Positions 8,287 to 39,231 of a stretch of 39,769 nucleotides of DNA are shown here, one piece after another. Source of the DNA: an uncultured Candidatus Sumerlaeota bacterium (GTDB lineage: Bacteria; Sumerlaeota; Sumerlaeia; MWCT01); the NCBI GenBank assembly GCA_964526215.1, contig CAZGKP010000002.1:1-39769 (forward strand). The letters are read 5' to 3'. The position numbers and the translations under genes are program-made. Numbering within the stretch: the first letter of the stretch is position 1; every line of letters begins with the position of its first letter. The notes beneath the pieces are model-generated. The model searched no databases and had not been told where the DNA came from. It saw only the letters and a list, made by a program, of their open reading frames with translations.

Positions 8287-8312
8287 AGGGCGTAATCTGC
8301 CCCGAAAATAAT

Positions 8313-8396
8313 CGTTGTCCGTTGTCTGTTGTCAGTTGGAGTATACGGGAATTGCTGATTGATATTTTTATCCTTTTGGGAGGGACGAGAAGCCTC
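8313..8396 (+). repeat. R1 copy A: ORF-less ghost of the four-helix cassette left end
   Basis: CGTTGTCCGTTGTCTGTTGTCAGTTGGAG..TGATTGATATTTTTATCCTTTTGGGAGGGACGAGAAGCCTCATAA. About 85% identical by eye to copy B. Its 3' end (GGAGGGACGAGAAGCCT) parallels the cassette start region (GGTGGACGAGGATGCCT). Confidence 0.6.
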
Positions 8397-8416: not shown

Positions 8417-9406
8417 TTAGTCGGTTTGCCGGTCTTCCGCGAAGACCCGTCCGCCCTGGTGGCTTGGCTGTATCCAGCCCGCAAAACCGAGTTCCTCGTG
8501 CAGGCGGGCTAAAGGGCGATACTCATCCGCCTTTACCCGGCGAGAAATTTCCGGCATCTCCGGCGCCCTGTATGCCGGAAAGTATTGACTCATAAGGGCA
8601 AGATGTATCTTCGGTGAAACCTCTTTTGCTAACCAGTGAAGTGATTCTTGTGTGCCGGCGATTCCGCCCGGCAGAACCAAATGCCTTACAATCAGTCCCC
8701 GCTGCGCAACGCCTCGCTCATCGCATCGCAACACGCCAACTTGCCTGAACATCTCTTTGAGCGCCGCCCGGCTGTGTTTTACGTAATTCTCCGCACCCGA
8801 ATACTTCAGCGCCATATCATCATCGGAGTATTTAATATCCGGCAGATAAATATCGAATATGCCGTCCAGCAATCGCAAAATCTCGACGCGCTCATAGCCG
8901 CTCGTATTATAAACGAGAGGGAGGCTGAATCCGCGCGAAACGGCAAACTCAAGTGCCTGTAAAATCTGCGGCACAAAATGCGTGGGCGTAACGAAATTTA
9001 TGTTCTCACAACCGCGTCTCTGTAAATATATGAACATATCGGTAAGCTGGCTGACGCTGTATTCGTTCCCGACGCCGAGCTGGCTGATTGGATAATTCTG
9101 GCAGAAAACACAACGAAGCGTGCAATTTGTGAAGAAGATTGTCCCGGAGCCGCCTTCGCCCACAAGCGGCGGCTCTTCGCCGAAGTGTGCATTGTGGGAA
9201 GAGACAATAGGATTTGCACCGGAGCGACAGCGCCCCTTTTCCCCGGCAATACGATTCACTCTACACCGATGTGGGCAGAGCTCGCAATGCCCCAGAATAG
9301 ATGCCGCCGCCACGACTCTCCGGTGGAGTTCCCCCGAACGATACAGCGACATATATGCCGGGGCTGAAATGATATTACACTCTGTTTTTTCACTCTTCAT
9401 CTTCAC
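8417..9406 (-). CDS. Radical SAM protein, PflX-like (pyruvate formate-lyase activase-related, COG1313 type)
   Basis: CX3CX2C motif (CTLRCVFCQN) plus an N-terminal Cys cluster (CELCPHRCRVNRIAGEKGRCR). The true start is either the GTG at 9406 or the ATG at 9400. Both lie inside the left arm of the R2 repeat. Confidence 0.85.
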   Translation of the reverse strand: MKMKSEKTECNIISAPAYMSLYRSGELHRRVVAAASILGHCELCPHRCRVNRIAGEKGRCRSGANPIVSSHNAHFGEEPPLVGEGGSGTIFFTNCTLRCVFCQNYPISQLGVGNEYSVSQLTDMFIYLQRRGCENINFVTPTHFVPQILQALEFAVSRGFSLPLVYNTSGYERVEILRLLDGIFDIYLPDIKYSDDDMALKYSGAENYVKHSRAALKEMFRQVGVLRCDERGVAQRGLIVRHLVLPGGIAGTQESLHWLAKEVSPKIHLALMSQYFPAYRAPEMPEISRRVKADEYRPLARLHEELGFAGWIQPSHQGGRVFAEDRQTD

Positions 9407-9640
9407 TCTTCATCTCTGTCTTCATCTCCATTTCCGTATCTTGCTATTTCTTGCGCAATGCGCCTTCCCGACCGATTCAATAGTGCACTCGTTCTGCCGA
9501 CGATTTCGCTCAAAAGATCTTTGCCTCCTCCGAAAAGAACATAGTTGTTGCTCTCGTAAAGATGAAGATGAAGAAGGAGATGAAGTGGATGCAAGCATCC
9601 CAATCAGATGAAGATTTTATGAGGGAATATACGCGAGATT
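9391..9640. repeat. R2 element (complete): imperfect TCTTCATCT / AGATGAAGA inverted arms around a ~130-nt core
   Basis: Left arm 9391-9429 (CACTCTTCATCTTCACTCTTCATCTCTGTCTTCATCTCC). Right arm 9559-9590 (AAGATGAAGATGAAGAAGGAGATGAAGTGGATG). Flank AGATTTTATGAGGGAATATACGCGAGATTCCC is shared with the 37.7-kb copy. Confidence 0.6.
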
Positions 9641-9661
9641 CCCTATTGACTCACAGAGGAT

Positions 9662-12815: not shown

Positions 12816-12891
12816 GCGGGAGTCGTTCAGTTGGTAGAACACCAGCCTTCCAAGCTGGTTGTCGCGGGTTCGAGTCCCGTCTCCCGCTCCA
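12816..12891 (+). tRNA. tRNA-Gly (anticodon UCC), CCA encoded
   Basis: Hand-folded cloverleaf. Acceptor GCGGGAG/CTCCCGC, D-arm GTTC-AGTTGGTA-GAAC, anticodon arm CCAGC-CTTCCAA-GCTGG, variable loop TTGTC, T-arm GCGGG-TTCGAGT-CCCGT, discriminator T, then CCA. Confidence 0.92.
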
Positions 12892-13010
12892 TCTTCAGGT
12901 GGGAAAAGGGCAATAAAAAAGCACACCGTCCGCCATCTCATCACTTCCATATTATCTAAATCGCCGAGTGACATAAACCGTTTTTCTGTCACGGGAATAA
13001 CCGCAGTCAA

Positions 13011-13090
13011 TTGTCCGTTGTCCGTTGTCAGTTGCAGTATCGGGGAATTCCTGATTAACATTTTTCATCCTTTTGGGAGGTCGAAGATCG
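13011..13090 (+). repeat. R1 copy B
   Basis: TTGTCCGTTGTCCGTTGTCAGTTGCAGTATCGGGGAATTCCTGATTAACATTTTTCATCCTTTTGGGAGGTCGAAGATCG. Lies 120 nt downstream of tRNA-Gly and directly upstream of the HAD gene. Confidence 0.6.
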
Positions 13091-14196: not shown

Positions 14197-17100
14197 ATGA
14201 GTGGTGAATTGTGCATCGGGATTGATGTGGGGTCGGTGAGTGTTAATACCTTTGTAACCGACCCGAATGGTGTCCTTTGGGATGAGGGTTACCACCGGAC
14301 AAATGGTCTACCATTTCACACGGCACTTACTGCACTGGAGGAAATTGGGGGAAGGTTTTCCGCGCAGCGTGTGCTCTATGTGGCGACTACGGGGTCAGGC
14401 GGACGCGAACTTTCTGATTTGATAGGCGGGCTGTTCGTAAACGAGATTGTTGCTCAATCGCGAGCCGTTGCTCAGGAGATTCCCCACGTCCGCACCGTCA
14501 TTGAGATGGGCGGCGAGGACTCCAAACTCCTGTTTTTCAAAAAAGAAGGTGGACGGTGCGTTCTTGAGGATTTCTCAATGAACGCATTGTGTGCCGCGGG
14601 AACGGGTTCATTCCTCGACCAACAGGCGGTGCGACTCGGCGTCTCGATAGAGAAGGAATTCGGAGAGCTGGCTCTTCAATGCAAGACTCCCCCGAGAATT
14701 GCAGGGCGCTGCAGCGTGTTCGCAAAGACGGATATGATTCACCTCCAGCAGGTGGGCACGCCGGTTGTGGACATTGTGGCAGGGCTTTGCCACGCCCTGG
14801 CGCGTAATTTCAAGGCAAGCATTGGCAAGGGGAAAGCCCTTGTCCGCCCGATAGCCTTCCAGGGCGGCGTTGCCGCAAATATCGGTATGGTGAGGGCATT
14901 TGAGGACGTCCTTGGGCTGAAACCCGGCGAACTGATAAAGCCCCGTCATTTTGCATCAATGGGGGCACTCGGTGCACTCCTGATTGCGCGCGAGTCGGGA
15001 GAGGGAAGAAATTTTCACGGACTCGATCCCCTGAAGGCACATATCGCAAAACCATATACCTCGAAAGGCAACCTTACCCGCCTGGCAGATTCCTTGACCC
15101 AAAAGGGCACTCCCGTATCAATAGTCCATTTCCCACAAAACACCCGCACCCACCCGATAGATGCATACCTCGGTGTTGATGTCGGCTCAATCAGCACAAA
15201 TATTGTTGTGATAGACAAAGAACACAGGGTTCTTGCCAAGAGATACCTCGCCACTGCGAGTCGCCCGATTGCGGCAATTGCTCGCGGTCTGGATGAGATT
15301 TACGGAGAGATCGGCGACCGGATTATTATCCGCGCAGCGGGCACAACCGGTTCAGGCAGATACTTGAGCGGCGACATCATCGGCGCAGATGTGGTATGCA
15401 ATGAAATCACCGCACAGGCTATCGCCGCAATTGATATTGACCCCGGGGTTGATACCGTATTTGAGATAGGCGGGCAGGATTCAAAATACATAAGCATTGA
15501 TAATGGTGCAATTGTTGACTTTGAGATGAACAAGGTATGTGCGGCGGGCACAGGCTCTTTTTTAGAGGAGCAGGCAAAACGGCTCGAAATTGACCTCAAG
15601 AGCGAATTTGCACCGCTTGCGCTCAACGCGCATCATCCGGTTCAGCTCGGCGACCGATGCACTGTCTTTATGGAGACTGACCTCGTTCATCATCAACAGG
15701 CGGGCGCAGACAAAGCAGACCTCCTCGCCGGTCTTGCATACTCCACCGTATACAACTATCTGAACCGTGTCGTGGGCGACAAGCGTATCGGCAGACGTAT
15801 ATTTTTTCAGGGCGGCACGGCTTTTAATAAGAGCGTTGTATCGGCGTTTAACAAGATTCTGGGTCGCGAGGTGATTGTCCCACCCCACCACGAGGTTACG
15901 GGCGCAATCGGCGTCGCCATAAACGCACAGAGGCGTCGGGGAAATCGCCCATCCCTATTCAAGGGCTTTGATTTATCAAAGCGGAAATACAAACTCACGA
16001 CTTTTGAGTGTAAGGGTTGTGAAAATCACTGCGAGATACATTGCATAAAGGTCGCCGGTGAAAAACCCCTCTTCTACGGCAGCCGCTGTGGAAAGTATGA
16101 CGTTGACCGCGTTAATAAAAAACCCTCCCGCCTCCCCGACCTCTTCGCAGAACGCGAGACACTCCTTTTTGCAGTACTCAATGGCGAAATGCGGAATATT
16201 GGGACACCGGCGAATAGAGATGCCGAAAAACAATCCGCATCCCCTAATCCTCAATTTCCAATTCCTGATGCCCAACACCCCTCCACCTCACCCACCCGCC
16301 CCCCCACAAAGGGTCGCGTTGGCATCCCCCTCGCCTCCATATTTTACGACCAATTGCCCTTCTGGGGTGCATTCTTTAAGTCTCTGGGTTTTGAGGTAGA
16401 GATTTCCGGCAGAACGCACAAAGGCACCATCAACCGTGGTATAGAGGCAGCTGTTTCAGAGACCTGTTTCCCCATAAAGGTCGCGTATGGGCATATTTTA
16501 GCCCTTATGGATAAAAAGCCTGATTTCATTTTCCTACCGTGCATAGTTGATGCTCCAATGCCCGATTTCACCAGCCGCGATAAATCCTGCTTCAACTGCC
16601 CATACATCCAGACGCTGCCTTACACCGCAGATGCTGCCCTAAATTTTGCGAAATGTGGGACTCCGGTCTTTTCGCCATCGCTCTTTATGCAATCGGGTGT
16701 GGAATATATGAAGCGGGAGTTGGGGCGCTACACAGAAATCCTGAAATCGGACAGGCGCAGTATCAATCGTGCAATAGATACGGCATATCGCGCGCAGGCT
16801 GCATTTAATAAAGCCCTCATCCGGCGCGGCAGAGAGATTCTTGAAAATCTAAAACCCCGACAAATGGCAATCGTGATTGTCGGACGCCCCTACAACACCT
16901 GCGATTCGGGTGTTGATATGGGTTTGCCCGAAAAATTGCTCGGTATGGATATACTCCCCATCCCTATGGATATGTTGCCGATAGATGAAGTGCCGCTGGA
17001 TGCCTCCTGGCGGAATATTTACTGGCTCTATGGATTGCGTATCCTGAAGGCGGCGCGAATTATCCGCGAACGTCAGTGCCTCTATCCACTCTATGTAACA

Positions 17101-18609
17101 AACTTCGGATGTGGACCGGATTCATTCCTGTTAAAGTTCTTCTCACGCGAGCTCGGCGGCAAACCATTCCTCCAGATTGAGATTGATGAACACAGCGCAG
17201 ACGCCGGCATCATCACCCGTTGCGAGGCATACCTCGATACCATTGCATCCTACAATGGCGCAACCCCACGGATACCACGTGAAGGACCAATTATGACGCT
17301 GGCATCCTTAATAAAATCTTCATCTTCATCTACGTCTTCATCTACGGAATCTTATCCTGCCAGCATCGGCCGATTGATTTCCCCAGGCGCGCCATCGGTG
17401 GGTAAACAGAATCGCGATACAACTCTATACATAACGCAGATGTGCAAGCATACATACGTCCTGGAGGCGATATTCAACCGTGCCGGTATTCCGGCACGCG
17501 TTATGGAACCATCGGATGAGGAATCGCTCTACTGGGGGCGCAAATATACCACCGGTAAGGAATGTTACCCTGCGCTACTCACCACCGGCGATATCGTGCG
17601 CGAGACACACCGTCCCGATTTTGACCCGGAACACGCAGCCTTCTTTATGCCCGGCGCAAATGGTCCCTGCCGATTCGGTCAATATGCAAAACTCCACCGC
17701 CACATCCTTGATGACCTCGGGCTGTCTTCTGTCTCCATTGTTACGCTCGACCAGGACAGGGGTTTCCATAGAGACATAAAGGGGCTTAATCTCTCCTCAG
17801 CAAAGGCTGCATGGAAAGGCATTGCCGCGGTGGATACCCTCGAGCGATACCTGCTCACCACACGTCCTTATGAAAAGAACCCCGGCGAGACCGAAGTGGT
17901 TCATAATGAGGCGCTGCGTGATCTTTACAAAACCATCCTTGAGGGCGGAAGTATTTCCGCCGAGGCGGAAAAGCAGTATCGCCTTTTTTCCCAAATCCCT
18001 ACCGAGGGGCGCGGCACACGCCCCCTTATCGGCATCGTCGGTGAGATTTATATCCGCTCAAACTCCTTCAGCAATGAGGATTTGATAAAGACACTCGAGG
18101 CGATGGGCGCCGAAGTAGCAATGCCACCAATTACTGAATGGCTTAACTACGTAACTCTTGTGCGCAGGTGGAGGAACTTGCAGCATCGCGACTACTGGAA
18201 CGCCGTCAAGGATTTCCTCATTGAAGAGTATATGCATCGTGTGGAACGGCGTATCACGCGAACCTTCAATTTTCAGCCCGAGGCATTGCCGGTAGAGCTC
18301 CTGGAACTTGCAACACCATATTTACATCCGAACTTCAGCGGAGAGGCGATCCTATCAATCGGGAAAACACTCGAACTCATCAAGGAGCGTGGTGTGGCTG
18401 GTGTAATAAACGTGATGCCCTTCACCTGTATGCCCGGCACAATCGTAGCGGCGCTCTTAAAGCGCGTGCGTGAGGATTTTGGCGGATTCCCCTGTATCTC
18501 ATTAGCCTTCACCGGACAGCAATCTCTGAACTTAAGGATGCGGCTTGAGGCATTTATGTATCAGGTGAGCGAGCGCCAAAGGCGCACCATCGGGGTGTTC
18601 CATAAATGA
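14197..18609 (+). CDS. Fusion of two BadF/BadG/BcrA/BcrD-type ATPase (activase) modules with a 2-hydroxyacyl-CoA-dehydratase-like region (DUF2229/HGD-D type)
   Basis: Two ASKHA ATPase modules (GIDVGSVSVN...CAAGTGSFLDQQA; LGVDVGSISTN...CAAGTGSFLEEQA). Cys cluster CKGCENHCEIHC. Dehydratase-like blocks (FGCGPDSFLLKF, IEIDEHSADAG, GKECYPALLTTGD, MPFTCMPGT). Confidence 0.9.
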   Translation: MSGELCIGIDVGSVSVNTFVTDPNGVLWDEGYHRTNGLPFHTALTALEEIGGRFSAQRVLYVATTGSGGRELSDLIGGLFVNEIVAQSRAVAQEIPHVRTVIEMGGEDSKLLFFKKEGGRCVLEDFSMNALCAAGTGSFLDQQAVRLGVSIEKEFGELALQCKTPPRIAGRCSVFAKTDMIHLQQVGTPVVDIVAGLCHALARNFKASIGKGKALVRPIAFQGGVAANIGMVRAFEDVLGLKPGELIKPRHFASMGALGALLIARESGEGRNFHGLDPLKAHIAKPYTSKGNLTRLADSLTQKGTPVSIVHFPQNTRTHPIDAYLGVDVGSISTNIVVIDKEHRVLAKRYLATASRPIAAIARGLDEIYGEIGDRIIIRAAGTTGSGRYLSGDIIGADVVCNEITAQAIAAIDIDPGVDTVFEIGGQDSKYISIDNGAIVDFEMNKVCAAGTGSFLEEQAKRLEIDLKSEFAPLALNAHHPVQLGDRCTVFMETDLVHHQQAGADKADLLAGLAYSTVYNYLNRVVGDKRIGRRIFFQGGTAFNKSVVSAFNKILGREVIVPPHHEVTGAIGVAINAQRRRGNRPSLFKGFDLSKRKYKLTTFECKGCENHCEIHCIKVAGEKPLFYGSRCGKYDVDRVNKKPSRLPDLFAERETLLFAVLNGEMRNIGTPANRDAEKQSASPNPQFPIPDAQHPSTSPTRPPTKGRVGIPLASIFYDQLPFWGAFFKSLGFEVEISGRTHKGTINRGIEAAVSETCFPIKVAYGHILALMDKKPDFIFLPCIVDAPMPDFTSRDKSCFNCPYIQTLPYTADAALNFAKCGTPVFSPSLFMQSGVEYMKRELGRYTEILKSDRRSINRAIDTAYRAQAAFNKALIRRGREILENLKPRQMAIVIVGRPYNTCDSGVDMGLPEKLLGMDILPIPMDMLPIDEVPLDASWRNIYWLYGLRILKAARIIRERQCLYPLYVTNFGCGPDSFLLKFFSRELGGKPFLQIEIDEHSADAGIITRCEAYLDTIASYNGATPRIPREGPIMTLASLIKSSSSSTSSSTESYPASIGRLISPGAPSVGKQNRDTTLYITQMCKHTYVLEAIFNRAGIPARVMEPSDEESLYWGRKYTTGKECYPALLTTGDIVRETHRPDFDPEHAAFFMPGANGPCRFGQYAKLHRHILDDLGLSSVSIVTLDQDRGFHRDIKGLNLSSAKAAWKGIAAVDTLERYLLTTRPYEKNPGETEVVHNEALRDLYKTILEGGSISAEAEKQYRLFSQIPTEGRGTRPLIGIVGEIYIRSNSFSNEDLIKTLEAMGAEVAMPPITEWLNYVTLVRRWRNLQHRDYWNAVKDFLIEEYMHRVERRITRTFNFQPEALPVELLELATPYLHPNFSGEAILSIGKTLELIKERGVAGVINVMPFTCMPGTIVAALLKRVREDFGGFPCISLAFTGQQSLNLRMRLEAFMYQVSERQRRTIGVFHK
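16245..16270 (+). repeat. Tentative R4-like segment inside the 1470-aa CDS
   Basis: CTAATCCTCAATTTCCAATTCCTGATG against the R4 copy at 18652 (CTCAATTCACTATTCCTCATTCA): about 17/24 matches. It sits within a low-complexity insert (SASPNPQFPIPDAQHPSTSPTRPPTKG). Confidence 0.3.
17305..17403 (+). repeat. R2-arm plus R3 sequence embedded in frame in the 1470-aa CDS
   Basis: TCCTTAATAAAATCTTCATCTTCATCTACGTCTTCATCT parallels the reverse complement of 37709-37745 (CCCTTATGAAATCTTCATCTTCGTCTTCATCT). AGGCGCGCCATCGGTGGG (17386-17403) is 18/18 identical to the R3 variant at 37548-37565 (reverse complement). Confidence 0.55.
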
Positions 18610-20139: not shown

Positions 20140-20174
20140 TAATCATCCTCGCAGAAAAAAAAGTGGTGGAACAG

Positions 20175-20240
20175 TTGTCTGTTGTCCGTTTGCCGTTTTG
20201 TCCGCCCGAGGCGGAGCGGATTCAACATTTTTATCCTTAC
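20175..20240 (+). repeat. R1 copy C (degenerate)
   Basis: TTGTCTGTTGTCCGTTTGCCGTTTTGTCC...GGATTCAACATTTTTATCCTTAC. It shares the 5' arm and the AACATTTTT(C)ATCCTT box with A and B. The middle is replaced by a CCGCC-CGA-GGCGG hairpin. Confidence 0.45.
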
Positions 20241-32636: not shown

Positions 32637-32730
32637 ATCACCCAGAGCACGTATTCATTTTTTTGATACATTTCAAATACCCTGCTCCCGGTATGAGGTC
32701 AATCTAAATAACTCGTCATACGTTGTGTGC

Positions 32731-32790
32731 ATCTTCCCTTCACTCTTCATCTTCATCTCCATCTATGTATCTTGCTGTTTCCCCCGCTGC
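32731..32790 (+). repeat. R2 solo left end
   Basis: ATCTTCCCTTCACTCTTCATCTTCATCTCCATCTATGTATCTTGCTGTTTCCCCCGC parallels 9391-9455 and 37597-37650 (shared ..TCTTCATCTCCAT..GTATCTTGCT(A/G)TTTC..). No clear right arm nearby. Confidence 0.5.
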
Positions 32791-32926
32791 ACAAGAAAAA
32801 ACTGATATGGAGATTACGCTGTGTATAAAAAGATTTTGCGAAGAAATTATGGAAATATGCCTTGATGTCTATATGTGTAAGATGGTTTAATAAATTTTTC
32901 AAGTTAGCAAAAGTGAGGCGACAAAA

Positions 32927-36711: not shown

Positions 36712-36791
36712 AGTTCACAAAGCTTGCGCCGCCGAGATGCGGCGGGCACAGAGATATTTTCTTCCCTGTGGTAATAAATTTTCCGGGTAGC

Positions 36792-36814
36792 GCCGAAGGC
36801 GCACCATCGGTGGG
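36792..36814 (+). repeat. R3 23-mer, copy 1 (7 nt downstream of the rnc stop)
   Basis: GCCGAAGGCGCACCATCGGTGGG. Identical to 39034-39056. 22/23 to the reverse complement of 37548-37570. Confidence 0.8.
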
Positions 36815-36821
36815 CAGAATA

Positions 36822-37535
36822 TTAGTGGTAGGGGTATTCGAGGGCGATGCGGGCGGCATCGTTCTCGGCTTCCTTCTTGCGGGAGCCATAACCTTTCCCG
36901 AAGGGCTTTCCCTGAATGGTAACCTCGATGCAGAAACTCTTCTTATGGTCAGGTCCGCTCTGGCTTATGAGTCGGTATTCGGGGACACACTGGAAGTTTT
37001 TCTGTGCATATTCCTGCAGGCGCGATTTGTAGTCGGCGAATATGTCGGACTGAAGGAGTTCCTCGGCGGGTTTGATGAGTTTCTCTTTGACAAAGTGGGA
37101 AACATCCTCGAGGGGGGCAGAGAGATAAAACGCCCCGATGAGGGACTCGAGGGCGCAACCCAGAAGGGTGGAACGCCGCCTGCCACCGCTTATTTCTTCT
37201 CCTTTGCCTAAAAGCAATAGATTGCCGATTCCGAGCCGCGTCGCCTGTCGCCCAAGCATCGAACGGCTCACAATCCGTGCCTTTCGCTTTGAAAGCCTGC
37301 CTTCATCTGCATCTGGGTATTTATCATAAAGGTAACGGGAGACCAGGAATCCAAGGACAGCATCTCCCAGAAATTCGAGGCGCTCATTATCTCCGGGTAG
37401 ACCCTTCTCGAATGCATACGAACTGTGCGTGAGGGCGAGGTTCACCCGTTTTAGGTCTGCACTCTGAAGGTTAAGGGATTTCAGGAATGCCTTCAGTGCT
37501 TTTTTTCGGGGAGAGTCTATATAGTCATCCGTCAT
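36822..37535 (-). CDS. rnc: Ribonuclease III
   Basis: Signature NERLEFLGDAVLG. C-terminal dsRBD (DYKSRLQEYAQK..PEYRLISQSGPDHKKSF..GSRKKEAENDAARIAL). Confidence 0.92.
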   Translation of the reverse strand: MTDDYIDSPRKKALKAFLKSLNLQSADLKRVNLALTHSSYAFEKGLPGDNERLEFLGDAVLGFLVSRYLYDKYPDADEGRLSKRKARIVSRSMLGRQATRLGIGNLLLLGKGEEISGGRRRSTLLGCALESLIGAFYLSAPLEDVSHFVKEKLIKPAEELLQSDIFADYKSRLQEYAQKNFQCVPEYRLISQSGPDHKKSFCIEVTIQGKPFGKGYGSRKKEAENDAARIALEYPYH

Positions 37536-37547
37536 ATCTATATAAAA

Positions 37548-37570
37548 CCCACCGATGGCGCGCCTTCGGC
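37548..37570 (-). repeat. R3 23-mer, copy 2, inverted (12 nt upstream of the rnc ATG)
   Basis: Plus strand CCCACCGATGGCGCGCCTTCGGC. The reverse complement GCCGAAGGCGCGCCATCGGTGGG differs from copies 1 and 3 at one base (G for A). Confidence 0.8.
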
Positions 37571-37596
37571 GTCATAAGTTGTGCTGCATATCTTCA

Positions 37597-37765
37597 CCTT
37601 ATACTCTTCATCTCCATCTTCATCTCCGCATCTTGCTATTTCCTCCGCCACACGCGTTTCTAACCGCCTCAATAAGGGCATCCCGCCAGGGGCGCGCCCG
37701 TAATAGCTAAGATGAAGACGAAGATGAAGATTTCATAAGGGAACACACGCGTGAGTCCCATTTTT
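37597..37765. repeat. R2 element (complete) in the fabF-rnc spacer
   Basis: Left arm CCTTATACTCTTCATCTCCATCTTCATCTCC (37597-37627). Right arm AAGATGAAGACGAAGATGAAGATTTCATAAGG (37709-37740). The core contains an R3-like CCCGCCAGGGGCGCGCCCG (37682-37700). Flank GGGAACACACGCGTGAGTCCC parallels 9624-9644. Confidence 0.6.
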
Positions 37766-37774
37766 TTGCCTCGC

Positions 37775-39016
37775 TTATTCCCATCGTCGCATAACGATTA
37801 CGGCATTATGCCCTCCAAAGCCCAGTGAGTTGGAGATGGCGATATTGACCGGGGCTGTGCGCGCTGTGTTGGGGACGTAATCGAGGTCGCAATCGGGGTC
37901 GGGGTTTTCATAATTTATGGTCGGGGGGATTTTGCCCTCGTGAATGGTCAGGGCGGTTGCTACTGCCTCTGCGGCGCCGGCTGCACCGAGCATATGCCCT
38001 ATCATCGATTTGTTGGAGCTAATGGCTAATTTGTATGCATGCTCGCCAAATACAGTCTTTATTGCCTGAGTTTCGGTTTTGTCATTAAGCGGGGTGGATG
38101 TTCCATGTGCATTGATATAGTCAACGGCAGAAGGAGGAATGCCGGCATCGTTCAGTGCGGCACGCATAGCCCTTGCGGCGCCCTCGCCTTCCGGGGGAGG
38201 TGCGGTCAGGTGATAGGCATCACCGCTGAATCCATAACCGACGATTTCGCAATAGATTTTCGCTCCGCGGCTCTTTGCGTGCTCGAGTTCCTCCAGCACG
38301 AGGATGCCTGCACCTTCTGCCAGAAGGAAGCCGTCCCGCTCTTTATCGAAGGGTCTGCTGGCTTTTTCAGGTGCATCGTTACGGCGAGTGATGGCATGCA
38401 TATTGTCGAAACCGGCGAGTCCAAGCGGTGTGATAGCCGCCTCTGCACCGCCCGTAATCATATAGATGGCGTCGCCGCGCTGGATGGTCCTAAACGCATC
38501 CCCGGTGGCATTTGTTCCCGATGCACAGGCTGTTACAACGCAGGAATTTGGTCCCTTCAGCCCCAGGTCTATGGCGACCATCGCTGACGCCATATTGGGG
38601 ATTATCTTTGGTATGAGGAATGGCGTTACGCGACGGGGACCCTTGTTCACAAGAATCTGATTCTGTTTTTCGATTAAGCCTATCCCGCCAATCCCGACGC
38701 CGATGATGACACCGAACCGGTCGCTATTGATACTATCTTTAGAGAAACCGGCATCAGAGAACGCCTCCCGCGCCGCCACTATCGCAAACTGGCAGAATTG
38801 CTCGGTCTTTCTTACTACCTTTCTGTCGAGGTGCTCCTCGGGTTTGAACCTCTTTACCTCTGCGGCAATCCTGGAGTTATTGTTCGAGGTATCGAAGTAT
38901 GTAATGGGACCCGCCCCACTCTTCCCCGAGACAAGGGCGTCCCAAAATGTCCTTGTATCATTTCCGATTGGGGTAATTACTCCAAGACCCGTAACAACTA
39001 CGCGCTTTTTTTCCAT
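37775..39016 (-). CDS. fabF: Beta-ketoacyl-ACP synthase II
   Basis: [16 protein letters not shown], active-site [14 protein letters not shown] and GHMLGAAG motifs. Start at ATG 39016 (MEKKRVVV). The track extension to 39049 runs into the R3 repeat. Confidence 0.92.
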
Positions 39017-39033
39017 ACGAACCTCTAATTGAT

Positions 39034-39057
39034 GCCGAAGGCGCACCATCGGTGGGG
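39034..39057 (+). repeat. R3 23-mer, copy 3 (18 nt upstream of the fabF ATG)
   Basis: GCCGAAGGCGCACCATCGGTGGGG, identical to copy 1 over 23 nt. Confidence 0.8.
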
Positions 39058-39208: not shown

Positions 39209-39231
39209 CCCACCAGGGGCGCGCCTGCGGC
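39209..39231 (-). repeat. R3 variant (AGG/CCT subtype) in the acpP-fabF spacer
   Basis: Plus strand CCCACCAGGGGCGCGCCTGCGGC. 19/23 identical to 37548-37570, and the same subtype as 37682-37700. Confidence 0.6.

Follow-up and report, generated by a model that had tools for sequence, protein, structure and literature searches.

We analysed a stretch of 39,769 nucleotides (nt), hereafter the window, which corresponds to positions 1–39,769 of contig CAZGKP010000002.1 (assembly GCA_964526215.1) of an uncultured bacterium probably belonging to Candidatus Sumerlaeota. The window includes a large enzyme gene whose coding sequence contains, in frame, a block of 99 nt that resembles parts of two dispersed repeats of the same genome, here called R2 and R3. 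The gene and the parts of this block, hereafter the insert, are as follows (positions are those of the window).

14197–18609, forward strand: host gene, an intact open reading frame (ORF) of 1470 codons, from the ORF list and its translation
17305–17403, forward strand: insert, 99 nt or 33 codons, encoding residues 1037–1069 (SLIKSSSSSTSSSTESYPASIGRLISPGAPSV) and matching an alignment gap exactly
17305–17345, reverse strand: R2 right end, present on the sense strand as its reverse complement, comprising the arm AGATGAAGACGTAGATGAAGATGAAGA and the outer flank TTTTATTAAGGA (nhmmer, BLAST)
17346–17384, forward strand: middle of the insert, of uncertain origin, with a 10-nt palindrome ATCGGCCGAT
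17385–17403, forward strand: R3 core of the insert, AGGCGCGCCATCGGTGGG(T), read as (P)GAPSVG

Host gene and protein family

The host protein of 1470 amino acids (aa) is a fusion of two BcrAD/BadFG activase ATPase domains and two halves resembling DCCP and 2-hydroxyacyl-CoA dehydratases. Pfam recovers the two BcrAD/BadFG ATPase domains, DUF2229 and a weak HGD-D match, while the profile of the full-length family matches Protein Data Bank (PDB) entries over its N-terminal part only (activases 4eht, 1hux and 7yyl_E, which are solved activators of 2-hydroxyacyl-CoA dehydratases and the DCCP reductase). A phmmer search of PDB sequences with the C-terminal 770 aa gave no match, and because sequence searches of the PDB returned activase domains only, the dehydratase-like fold was found through AlphaFold2 and Foldseek. 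Thousands of full-length homologues were retrieved from 5.8 billion proteins, the best being 1399–1415 aa long with 64–67% identity by BLASTP (up to 70% in the alignment), and the named matches in this best group and in the 50% tier are from Candidatus Sumerlaeota/Sumerlaeia only.

The insert is read as 33 residues within the unbroken frame of the gene, as the initial annotation had noted, and a block of exactly this length is private to the host protein in comparison with 21 homologues of 51–70% identity. It is missing from 30/30 distinct homologues aligned (44–70% identical), from the longest family members (P0022, 1554 aa; P0096, 1519 aa; P0023, 1438 aa) and from the closest relative among the 5.8 billion proteins (67% identity by BLASTP, 70% in the alignment). 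The block follows the invariant EIDEHSADAG..TRCEA.LD motif and precedes the conserved block that comes next, which reads YITQM in the host protein and Y(I/L)P.M in its homologues. The stretch between these motifs is variable in the family, with 25–40 residues in the homologues and 67 in the host protein, and all family-invariant alignment columns lie outside the insert. R3 ends in a GGT that overlaps a Gly codon native to the gene, which leaves the boundaries of the insert uncertain by ~3 nt. Judged from these alignments, 17305–17403 is a lineage-specific in-frame insertion, which bears out the earlier proposal that homologues would lack it.

A second private insertion of ~35 residues (~692–726, nt ~16267–16375, ..PANRDAEKQSASPNPQFPIPDAQHPSTSPTRPP..), rich in Pro, Ser and Thr, occupies the linker that joins the activase and DUF2229 parts and is found in none of the aligned homologues; a search for a repeat origin of this segment gave no match above noise within the window. 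The C-termini of the homologues are unrelated and of variable length in the alignment.

Structural setting of the insert

An AlphaFold2 model of residues 701–1470, built with 30 homologues, had a mean predicted local distance difference test (pLDDT) score of 81.6 and a predicted template modelling (pTM) score of 0.84. Residues 1046–1070 have pLDDT values <50 (block means of 32 and 37) and no secondary structure, and form a low-confidence loop between two confident halves (model residues 1–317 and 376–770). Foldseek searches with this C-terminal 770-aa model retrieved DCCP (7yyl, 6eno), BzdNO (8s02) and the 2-hydroxyisocaproyl-CoA dehydratase HadBC (3o3o, 3o3n), in chains of ~375–440 residues that each correspond to roughly half of the model. 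From the model we infer that the insert probably sits in the tether between two dehydratase-like pseudo-subunits; the inter-domain position suggested earlier is thus one on which alignment blocks, AlphaFold2 and Foldseek agree.

Assembly support

The stretch is present in 13 metagenome runs from salt-marsh, marine-sediment and cold-seep environments. In four samples, Logan contigs that were assembled separately cover the junctions of the insert with 0 differences (X1, 16900–17808; X2, 16900–17387 and 17375–17574; X3, 17025–17414; X5, 17168–17318 and 17364–17576), those of X1 and X3 each holding the entire insert within one contig. No allele or contig skipping the insert was found in eight metagenome runs, in which other contigs match the arm alone (17311–17344) with 2–3 mismatches, as expected of a dispersed repeat. 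Since contigs of four separately assembled samples carry the junctions unchanged, the insert is not a chimera, a concern that the initial annotation had raised.

The R2 element and the origin of the insert arm

R2 is a non-coding mosaic repeat of 230–480 nt, with 7 copies in 77 kb of metagenome contigs (L numbers below denote such contigs) and 2.5 copies in the window. Its left side begins with TATATACAA and continues with R3 (CCCACCGATGGCGCGCCTTCGGC), GTCATAAGTTGTGTGCATATC and a left arm in which the number of TCTTCATCTCCA units varies; the interior is conserved except for an optional block of ~190 nt, and the right side comprises the right arm TAAAATGAAGACGAAGATGAAG.. and then ATTTTATGAGAGAATATATTCGAGATTCCC, with the right terminus ..GCTGTGTATA (..AAGACATTATTTAAGACGCTGTGTATA in the most complete copies). 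The two long arms are inverted and built of TCTTCATCT/AGATGAAGA units, and full copies fold into long hairpins (DNA fold z = -2.1 and -3.9). The termini, TATATACAAC on the left and TATACACAGC on the right (reverse complement), agree at 8/10 positions in L055, L062, L066 and L070, a match that suggests a weak inverted repeat but is too short to be decisive. Both ends carry TA/TATA, compatible with a TA duplication, and no longer direct repeat was seen in unique flanks. At gathering thresholds, Rfam returned only a tRNA (12816–12888) for the window and five R2-bearing loci, and no family for R2 or R3. The copies of R2 in the window outside the host gene are listed below.

37539–37761, forward strand: intergenic R2 copy between a fabF-like gene (37775–39025, reverse strand) and rnc (36822–37535, reverse strand), the neighbours being named from Pfam
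9389–9648, forward strand: intergenic R2 copy with both arms and a 28-nt right-arm insert TGGATGCAAGCATCCCAATCAGATGAAG, lacking R3 and terminal sequences
32729–32792, forward strand: isolated R2 left-arm fragment upstream of a PAS/GAF histidine-kinase gene (repeat families D1, D2 and D8)

The copy at 37539–37761 (DNA fold z = -2.1) comprises the left terminus TATATAAAA, R3 (37548–37570, in minus-strand orientation), the left arm, an interior with a module resembling the R3 variant R3b (~37682–37699), the right arm (37709–37742) and an end hairpin, and lacks the outermost right-terminal segment in comparison with the 7 metagenome copies. Its right-end hairpin (GGGAACACACGCGTGAGTCCC, 37739–37767) is followed by seven T, like an intrinsic terminator of the plus strand; the neighbouring genes are on the minus strand.

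The match between the insert and the right end of R2, already listed in the initial annotation, amounts to 28/34 positions (17305–17338 against the reverse complement of 37709–37742) and, in a second register, to 21/22 (17322–17343 against 37710–37731). BLAST matches of the insert arm comprise 37709–37742, 9606–9626, L053 (510–537) and L062/L070. A right-end profile made from eight other R2 right ends, with the gene copy left out, recovers 17309–17345 on the reverse strand with nhmmer (E = 1.2e-4). Within the window this match comes third, preceded by the two true R2 copies (the right end of 9389–9648 scores E = 6.8e-32, but that copy belonged to the training set) and followed by the R2 left arms (E ~0.1), and it is the sole one in 117 kb besides training copies and segments inside full R2 copies. 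The sequences on either side of the arm match as well, the inner flank GATAAGATTCCGTAGATGAAGAC resembling GAAAAGATTCTAAAATGAAGAC of L062/L070 and the outer flank GAAGATTTTATTAAGGA resembling GAAGATTTTATGAGGGA of 9606–9626 and L053.

Two other assignments were considered and set aside. An inverted R2 left arm was rejected, because the outer (ATAAAATCTTC) and inner (GAATCTTATC) flanks match those of right arms and the right-end profile ranks the insert above left arms. Derivation from the copy at 37548–37745 in particular is not supported, since that copy has ATTTCAT at a point where the insert and most other copies read ATTTTAT, and among R3 variants the G type is the most frequent.

The R3 core and the middle of the insert

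At the other end of the insert, AGGCGCGCCATCGGTGGG (17385–17402) is identical at 18/18 positions to 37548–37565 (minus strand), the copy in front of rnc, as the initial annotation had recorded, and, counting the T that follows, at 19/19; TCCCC stands in place of GCCGA, the initial 5 nt of the 23-nt R3 consensus. The core starts 41 nt after the arm end, close to the spacing first given, while 140–400 nt separate these parts in full copies. Read as its reverse complement, the insert consists in order of CCCACCGATGGCGCGCCT (the R3 core), 40 nt and (C)GTAGATGAAGACGTAGATGAAGATGAAGATTTTATTAAGGA, so that the R3 core and the right arm stand in the same order and orientation as in full R2. The arm and R3 had been described as distinct repeats, and both are indeed present, but they are not unrelated neighbours: R3 directly adjoins the left terminus of R2 in 8 copies (window 37548, L045, L053, L055, L062, L066, L068 and L070), and the insert therefore holds sequence derived from either end of one element family.

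The middle of the insert resembles the 'short hairpin + spacer' that adjoins R3 in L042 and L076 (BLAST, 75–77% over 40–44 nt including R3), and weakly resembles the R2 interior (GAATTCAATCGCCCG), with 25/500 shuffles reaching its local alignment score. Taken together, nhmmer, BLAST and the 19/19 match to R3 sustain the view that the segment is made of R2-arm and R3 sequence, and its two ends are repeat-derived DNA, beyond chance or poly-Ser low complexity.

Copies and variants of R3

R3 is a repeat of 23 nt. Within the window, six copies of its 18-mer core were found at ≤3 mismatches, against 0.08 expected by chance, and 0/100 shuffles reached six; outside the insert, the core is exact at 37548 (minus strand), has 1 mismatch at 36797 and 39039 and has 3 mismatches at 18580 and 39209. 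The exact 23-mer (GCCGAAGGCGCRCCATCGGTGGG), used as the query against JGI metagenome contigs, occurs in at least 36 contigs, 33 of them from one salt-marsh metagenome. These contigs are 1–3.5 kb long with 48% G+C (50% in the window), and L049, for one, matches the window around 39034 without a difference across the 143 nt shown. We infer that they are probably pieces of a fragmented genome, either of this organism itself or of close strains. A scan of 596 Gb of genome contigs with the 18-mer core gave single matches in unrelated high-G+C genomes, in about the number expected by chance. Most R3 copies lie outside long ORFs and many stand alone; R3 has no stop codon in any of its six frames, and the TCTTCATCT arm has none in its three sense frames. 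The further R3 features of the window are these.

18572–18597, forward strand: second, degenerate R3 in the host gene, residues 1460–1467 (..RQRRTIGVFHK*), 21/22 to 36789–36810 (E = 1.6e-4)
36792–36814, forward strand: solitary R3, A variant, between convergent gene ends
39034–39056, forward strand: solitary R3, A variant, directly upstream of the start codon of the fabF-like gene at 39025
39209–39226, reverse strand: R3b-type variant AGGCGCGCCCCTGGTGGG, 3 mismatches to R3, recurring in L043, L049, L045, L068 and L070

The degenerate copy at 18572–18597 differs from the 18-mer at 3 positions and is read in another frame than the R3 of the insert; because it encodes the C-terminal tail of the protein, the host gene carries repeat-derived sequence in two places. 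The solitary copy at 36792 forms, together with its flank, the hairpin GCGCC-GAA-GGCGC (DNA fold -9.4 kcal/mol, z = -2.4).

R3 was also seen at the margins of other genes. The ORF call of the fabF-like gene starts at 39049, inside R3, and the start that gives a typical N-terminus is 39025 (window 39023–39049). The copy at 37548 lies upstream of the start codon of rnc at a distance of 12 nt, and the interval contains no obvious ribosome-binding site (37535–37570). An M20-family peptidase on L044 (1042–1064, in a minus-strand ORF of 435 codons) runs for ~40 codons through a 'CCGCCACGGCGG hairpin + R3' (..PKARHRW..) to its stop, and its C-terminal tail looks repeat-derived. The frame of ribosomal protein S5 on L060 (1325–2262) continues without a stop for at least 104 codons beyond residue 208, where both Pfam S5 domains have ended, and enters R3 at the contig end in the same frame as the insert of the window (..AEGAPSV).

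R3 is accompanied by related and unrelated short modules. A 22-nt R3-like module, R3b (GTCGCAGACGCGCCCCTGGCGG), lies inside R2 of L068 (~1515–1536), L070 and L045 (alignment columns 158–179) and is missing at the same point in five R2 copies (L053, L055, L066, L062 and the window copy); L045 has a second R3b within its right arm, and similar variants occur at window 39209–39226 and ~37682–37699. Very short modules thus seem to nest within larger repeats. In L076 (282–356), two inverted R3 copies 33 nt apart form a REPIN-like doublet with a perfect 23-bp stem (-32.1 kcal/mol, z = -7.2), and partial tandem duplications of R3 (GCCGAAG+GCCGAAGGCGCGCCATCGGTGGG+CGCGCCATCGGTGGG) in L045, L052, L063, L064 and L067 may be either real slippage or assembly artefacts of low coverage. 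The short module ATGGAACATTCGCCTGTGGAGAA or its reverse complement adjoins R3 in various arrangements (L042, L047, L051, L052, L057, L061 and L063), and the module CCGCCACAGGCGGATAA likewise recurs beside R3 (L044, L056, L059 and L065). A further dispersed repeat of TTGTCCG/TTGTCAG units (ATTGTCCGTTGTCCGTTGTCAGTTG) is found between genes of the window at 2495–2514, 2908–2939, 8312–8342, 13006–13038 and 20172–20197, with 8315–8388 and 13011–13084 sharing 74 nt at 80%, and also in L048, L053 and L059. The genome seems to contain a repertoire of small hairpin modules from which mosaics are put together. We found no published description of the R2, R3 or R3b repeats, nor of such repeats in Sumerlaeota.

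The insert as a fragment of repeat DNA

Of the R2 element, the gene copy has retained one arm and half of the R3 hairpin; the terminal TATA(T)ACA, the partner arm and the interior are missing. Its junctions, GCTGGCA/TCCTTAAT and GGTGGG/TAAACAG (the slash marking the boundary), show neither TATA(T)ACA termini nor a duplication, and its single-stranded DNA fold (-6.9 kcal/mol, z = +0.47) is no better than that of shuffles. Because the termini and partner arm are missing and the sequence has no fold of its own, the insert is no intact palindromic element but an immobile fragment. It is very probable that the insert is a dead remnant of dispersed repeat DNA from the genome itself. Read-through of a full R2 would be impossible, as such copies (L053 and window 37539–37771) have stop codons in all three frames in gene-sense orientation; the insert is simply translated, being 33 codons long and free of stops in the frame used.

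Proposed history and competing explanations

We propose that a fragment of R2-family DNA entered the gene at the site coding for the flexible linker that joins the DCCP/dehydratase-like halves. This piece would have kept no more than the right arm, its flanks and the R3 core, everything mobile or palindromic being gone, and would have added a Ser-rich, predicted disordered loop away from the conserved catalytic blocks, leaving the enzyme intact. Its survival could then be put down to its length of 33 codons, its open frame and a site at which disordered residues may be harmless. The fragment may have arrived already short, as a shortened copy that inserted or as repeat DNA copied in by ectopic repair, or a longer copy may have inserted and later been deleted down to an open frame; we lean towards the short donor, because a full copy would have truncated a well-conserved enzyme.

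Several points weigh against this history. The coverage of the organism is low (~2.5–4.3x word depth), and the arm is partly of low complexity, TCTTCATCT encoding poly-Ser. Derivation of the middle 40 nt (17346–17384) from the R2 interior is not significant (p ~0.05 in local alignment against R2 bodies), and since this part lacks a confident assignment to a repeat family, the insert may be a composite of more than one event. The data examined contain neither an empty-site allele nor a relative of >70% identity, so the insertion is undatable and the pre-insertion sequence can be deduced only from distant homologues. Transposition is putative only, as the junctions have no target-site duplication and no terminal inverted repeat. 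Finally, the activity of the enzyme and the neutrality of the loop are both putative. The loop would appear to be a tolerated passenger conferring no functional gain; a functional role is conceivable but drew no support from the data.

A different account of these repeats is that the ~22-nt R3/R3b units and their accompanying modules are themselves mobile in this lineage, entering repeats, gene flanks and gene ends, which we regard as conceivable though doubtful. Being open in all six frames, R3/R3b could on this account repeatedly donate coding sequence, for which the candidates are the internal loop and C-terminal tail of the host enzyme, the C-terminal tail of the M20 peptidase and the extension of ribosomal protein S5. 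If true, a barely studied phylum would harbour in R3/R3b a mobile module that is protein-permissive and of unusually small size.

It is rather improbable that the insert was built by separate events, an R2-arm fragment coming first and a ~22-nt R3 unit being added beside it later. Such a sequence would accord with the presence of R3b inside R2 in L068, L070 and L045 and its lack in L053, L055, L066, L062 and the window copy, with the many solitary R3 copies and with the likeness of the middle 40 nt to the 'hairpin + spacer + R3' modules of L042/L076. However, the frame must survive each step, and a 22–23-nt R3 unit alone would shift it; moreover, R3 and the right arm have the order and orientation of full R2, for which a single donor is simpler. 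Slightly less credible still is exaptation, in which the loop was recruited as a longer tether or as a Ser-rich modification or docking site and kept by selection. In its favour, all samples covering the insert and its junctions show them to be identical, the frame is open with a length that is a multiple of three, and the second private low-complexity linker insertion (~692–726) hints at a lineage trend to longer linkers. Yet identity at ~3–4x depth in one habitat says little on selection, the loop is predicted to be disordered, the homologues all do without it, and an open frame is a precondition for surviving insertion in an important gene and not proof of benefit.

That an ordinary poly-Ser linker grew by slippage and came to look like the TCTTCATCT-rich arms and R3 by coincidence is extremely unlikely, for although the arm is of low complexity, encodes SSSSS and lies in a linker that varies within the family, the same 99 nt contain an exact R3 19-mer (0.08 matches per window being expected even with ≤3 mismatches), the non-repetitive arm flanks match too, order and orientation agree with the full element and the profile gives E = 1.2e-4. 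An assembly artefact, in which a contig chimera was joined via the repeat and the true gene is without the segment, can be dismissed with equal assurance: repeats are classic sites of misassembly and coverage is low, but the Logan contigs of four samples cover the junctions without difference, and reading frame and flanking homology continue exactly across the segment.

Comparison with known repeat systems

In-frame intragenic insertions of small repeats have been documented for Rickettsia palindromic elements (RPEs), ERIC/RU, Coxiella QMITE1 and Anabaena MITEs, or miniature inverted-repeat transposable elements (PMC10969869, PMC2759123, PMC5896051, PMC3184786), with 44 RPE integrations in genes of one genome (Ogata et al. 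2000, 2002, as summarised in PMC10969869). The initial annotation had likened the insert to colonisation of genes by RPEs. This holds insofar as repeat-derived DNA was inserted in frame; RPEs, too, are short, non-autonomous, dispersed repeats found between genes and inside unrelated metabolic genes, in frame and compatible with the protein fold (PMC10969869). It does not hold for the palindrome, as the inserted copy is not palindromic (z = +0.47). RPEs are whole palindromic units of ~100–150 bp with a conserved ORF of their own (PMC10969869), whereas the insert is a non-palindromic 99-nt fragment and full R2 (230–480 nt) has stops in every frame of the relevant orientation; their host is Rickettsia and not a probable Sumerlaeota bacterium, where one internal case and a few C-terminal tails were seen. 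With Candidatus Sumerlaeota as the source of the closest named homologues of the host gene, kinship of the repeat with RPE-1 to RPE-10 is not expected. The insert is neither a palindromic unit nor part of an element open along its whole length, the two properties that define RPEs, and because it is no palindromic element the comparison is an analogy of outcome, not of anatomy.

Closer in some respects are intragenic elements of the MITE type. Enterobacterial RU/ERIC units (PMC2759123), Coxiella QMITE1 (PMC5896051) and the Anabaena MITEs (PMC10969869) are small, multi-copy elements that have inverted repeats and encode no transposase, and occasional copies inside ORFs give in-frame fusions or new peptide segments. 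R2 agrees with MITEs in size and copy number (<~600 bp, multi-copy, no transposase gene), and differs in that its candidate terminal inverted repeats are imperfect and short (8/10), it has no known partner insertion sequence and its TA target duplication, though compatible with the data, is putative. The copy in the gene is without both termini and without a target-site duplication, which sets it apart from MITEs. Taken as a whole, the R2 family is MITE-like, though its termini are weak.

R3 invites comparison with the REP/BIME/REPIN sequences mobilised by RAYT transposases (PMC3733652, PMC3184786), with which it shares small size (23 nt), G+C-richness, uniformity, high copy number and a mostly intergenic location, as well as its occurrence in small hairpins, in one inverted pair (L076) and in mosaics with other short modules. 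It differs from them in being by itself a weak palindrome, forming half of a ~50-nt hairpin at the left end of R2, and in having no conserved GTAG/CGTC tag (GTAG precedes the 36792 copy only). No RAYT gene turned up in 117 kb, in which no search aimed at RAYT was made. R3 is REP-like, with a weak palindrome and no known RAYT.

Implications

The insert is a further example of known in-frame insertions, RPE-like and intragenic-MITE-like, in a probable Sumerlaeota bacterium. It works as the known cases do, selfish or junk repeat DNA being tolerated as a surface loop, and is a modest curiosity that involves no new mechanism and leaves knowledge of repeat mobility mechanisms and of protein evolution unchanged. 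Its study has brought to light a nested family of short repeats (R2, R3, R3b and others) in this genome. Because R2, R3 and R3b fragment short-read assemblies, these repeats matter for the binning and annotation of such genomes, and mechanical ORF calls in the lineage can be expected to run through R3 often. The gene provides a clean, checkable case, outside the obligate intracellular bacteria from which such insertions are best known (Rickettsia RPEs, Coxiella QMITE1), in which repeat DNA has joined a conserved enzyme unbroken, and it indicates that such insertions survive in disordered inter-domain linkers and at C-termini.

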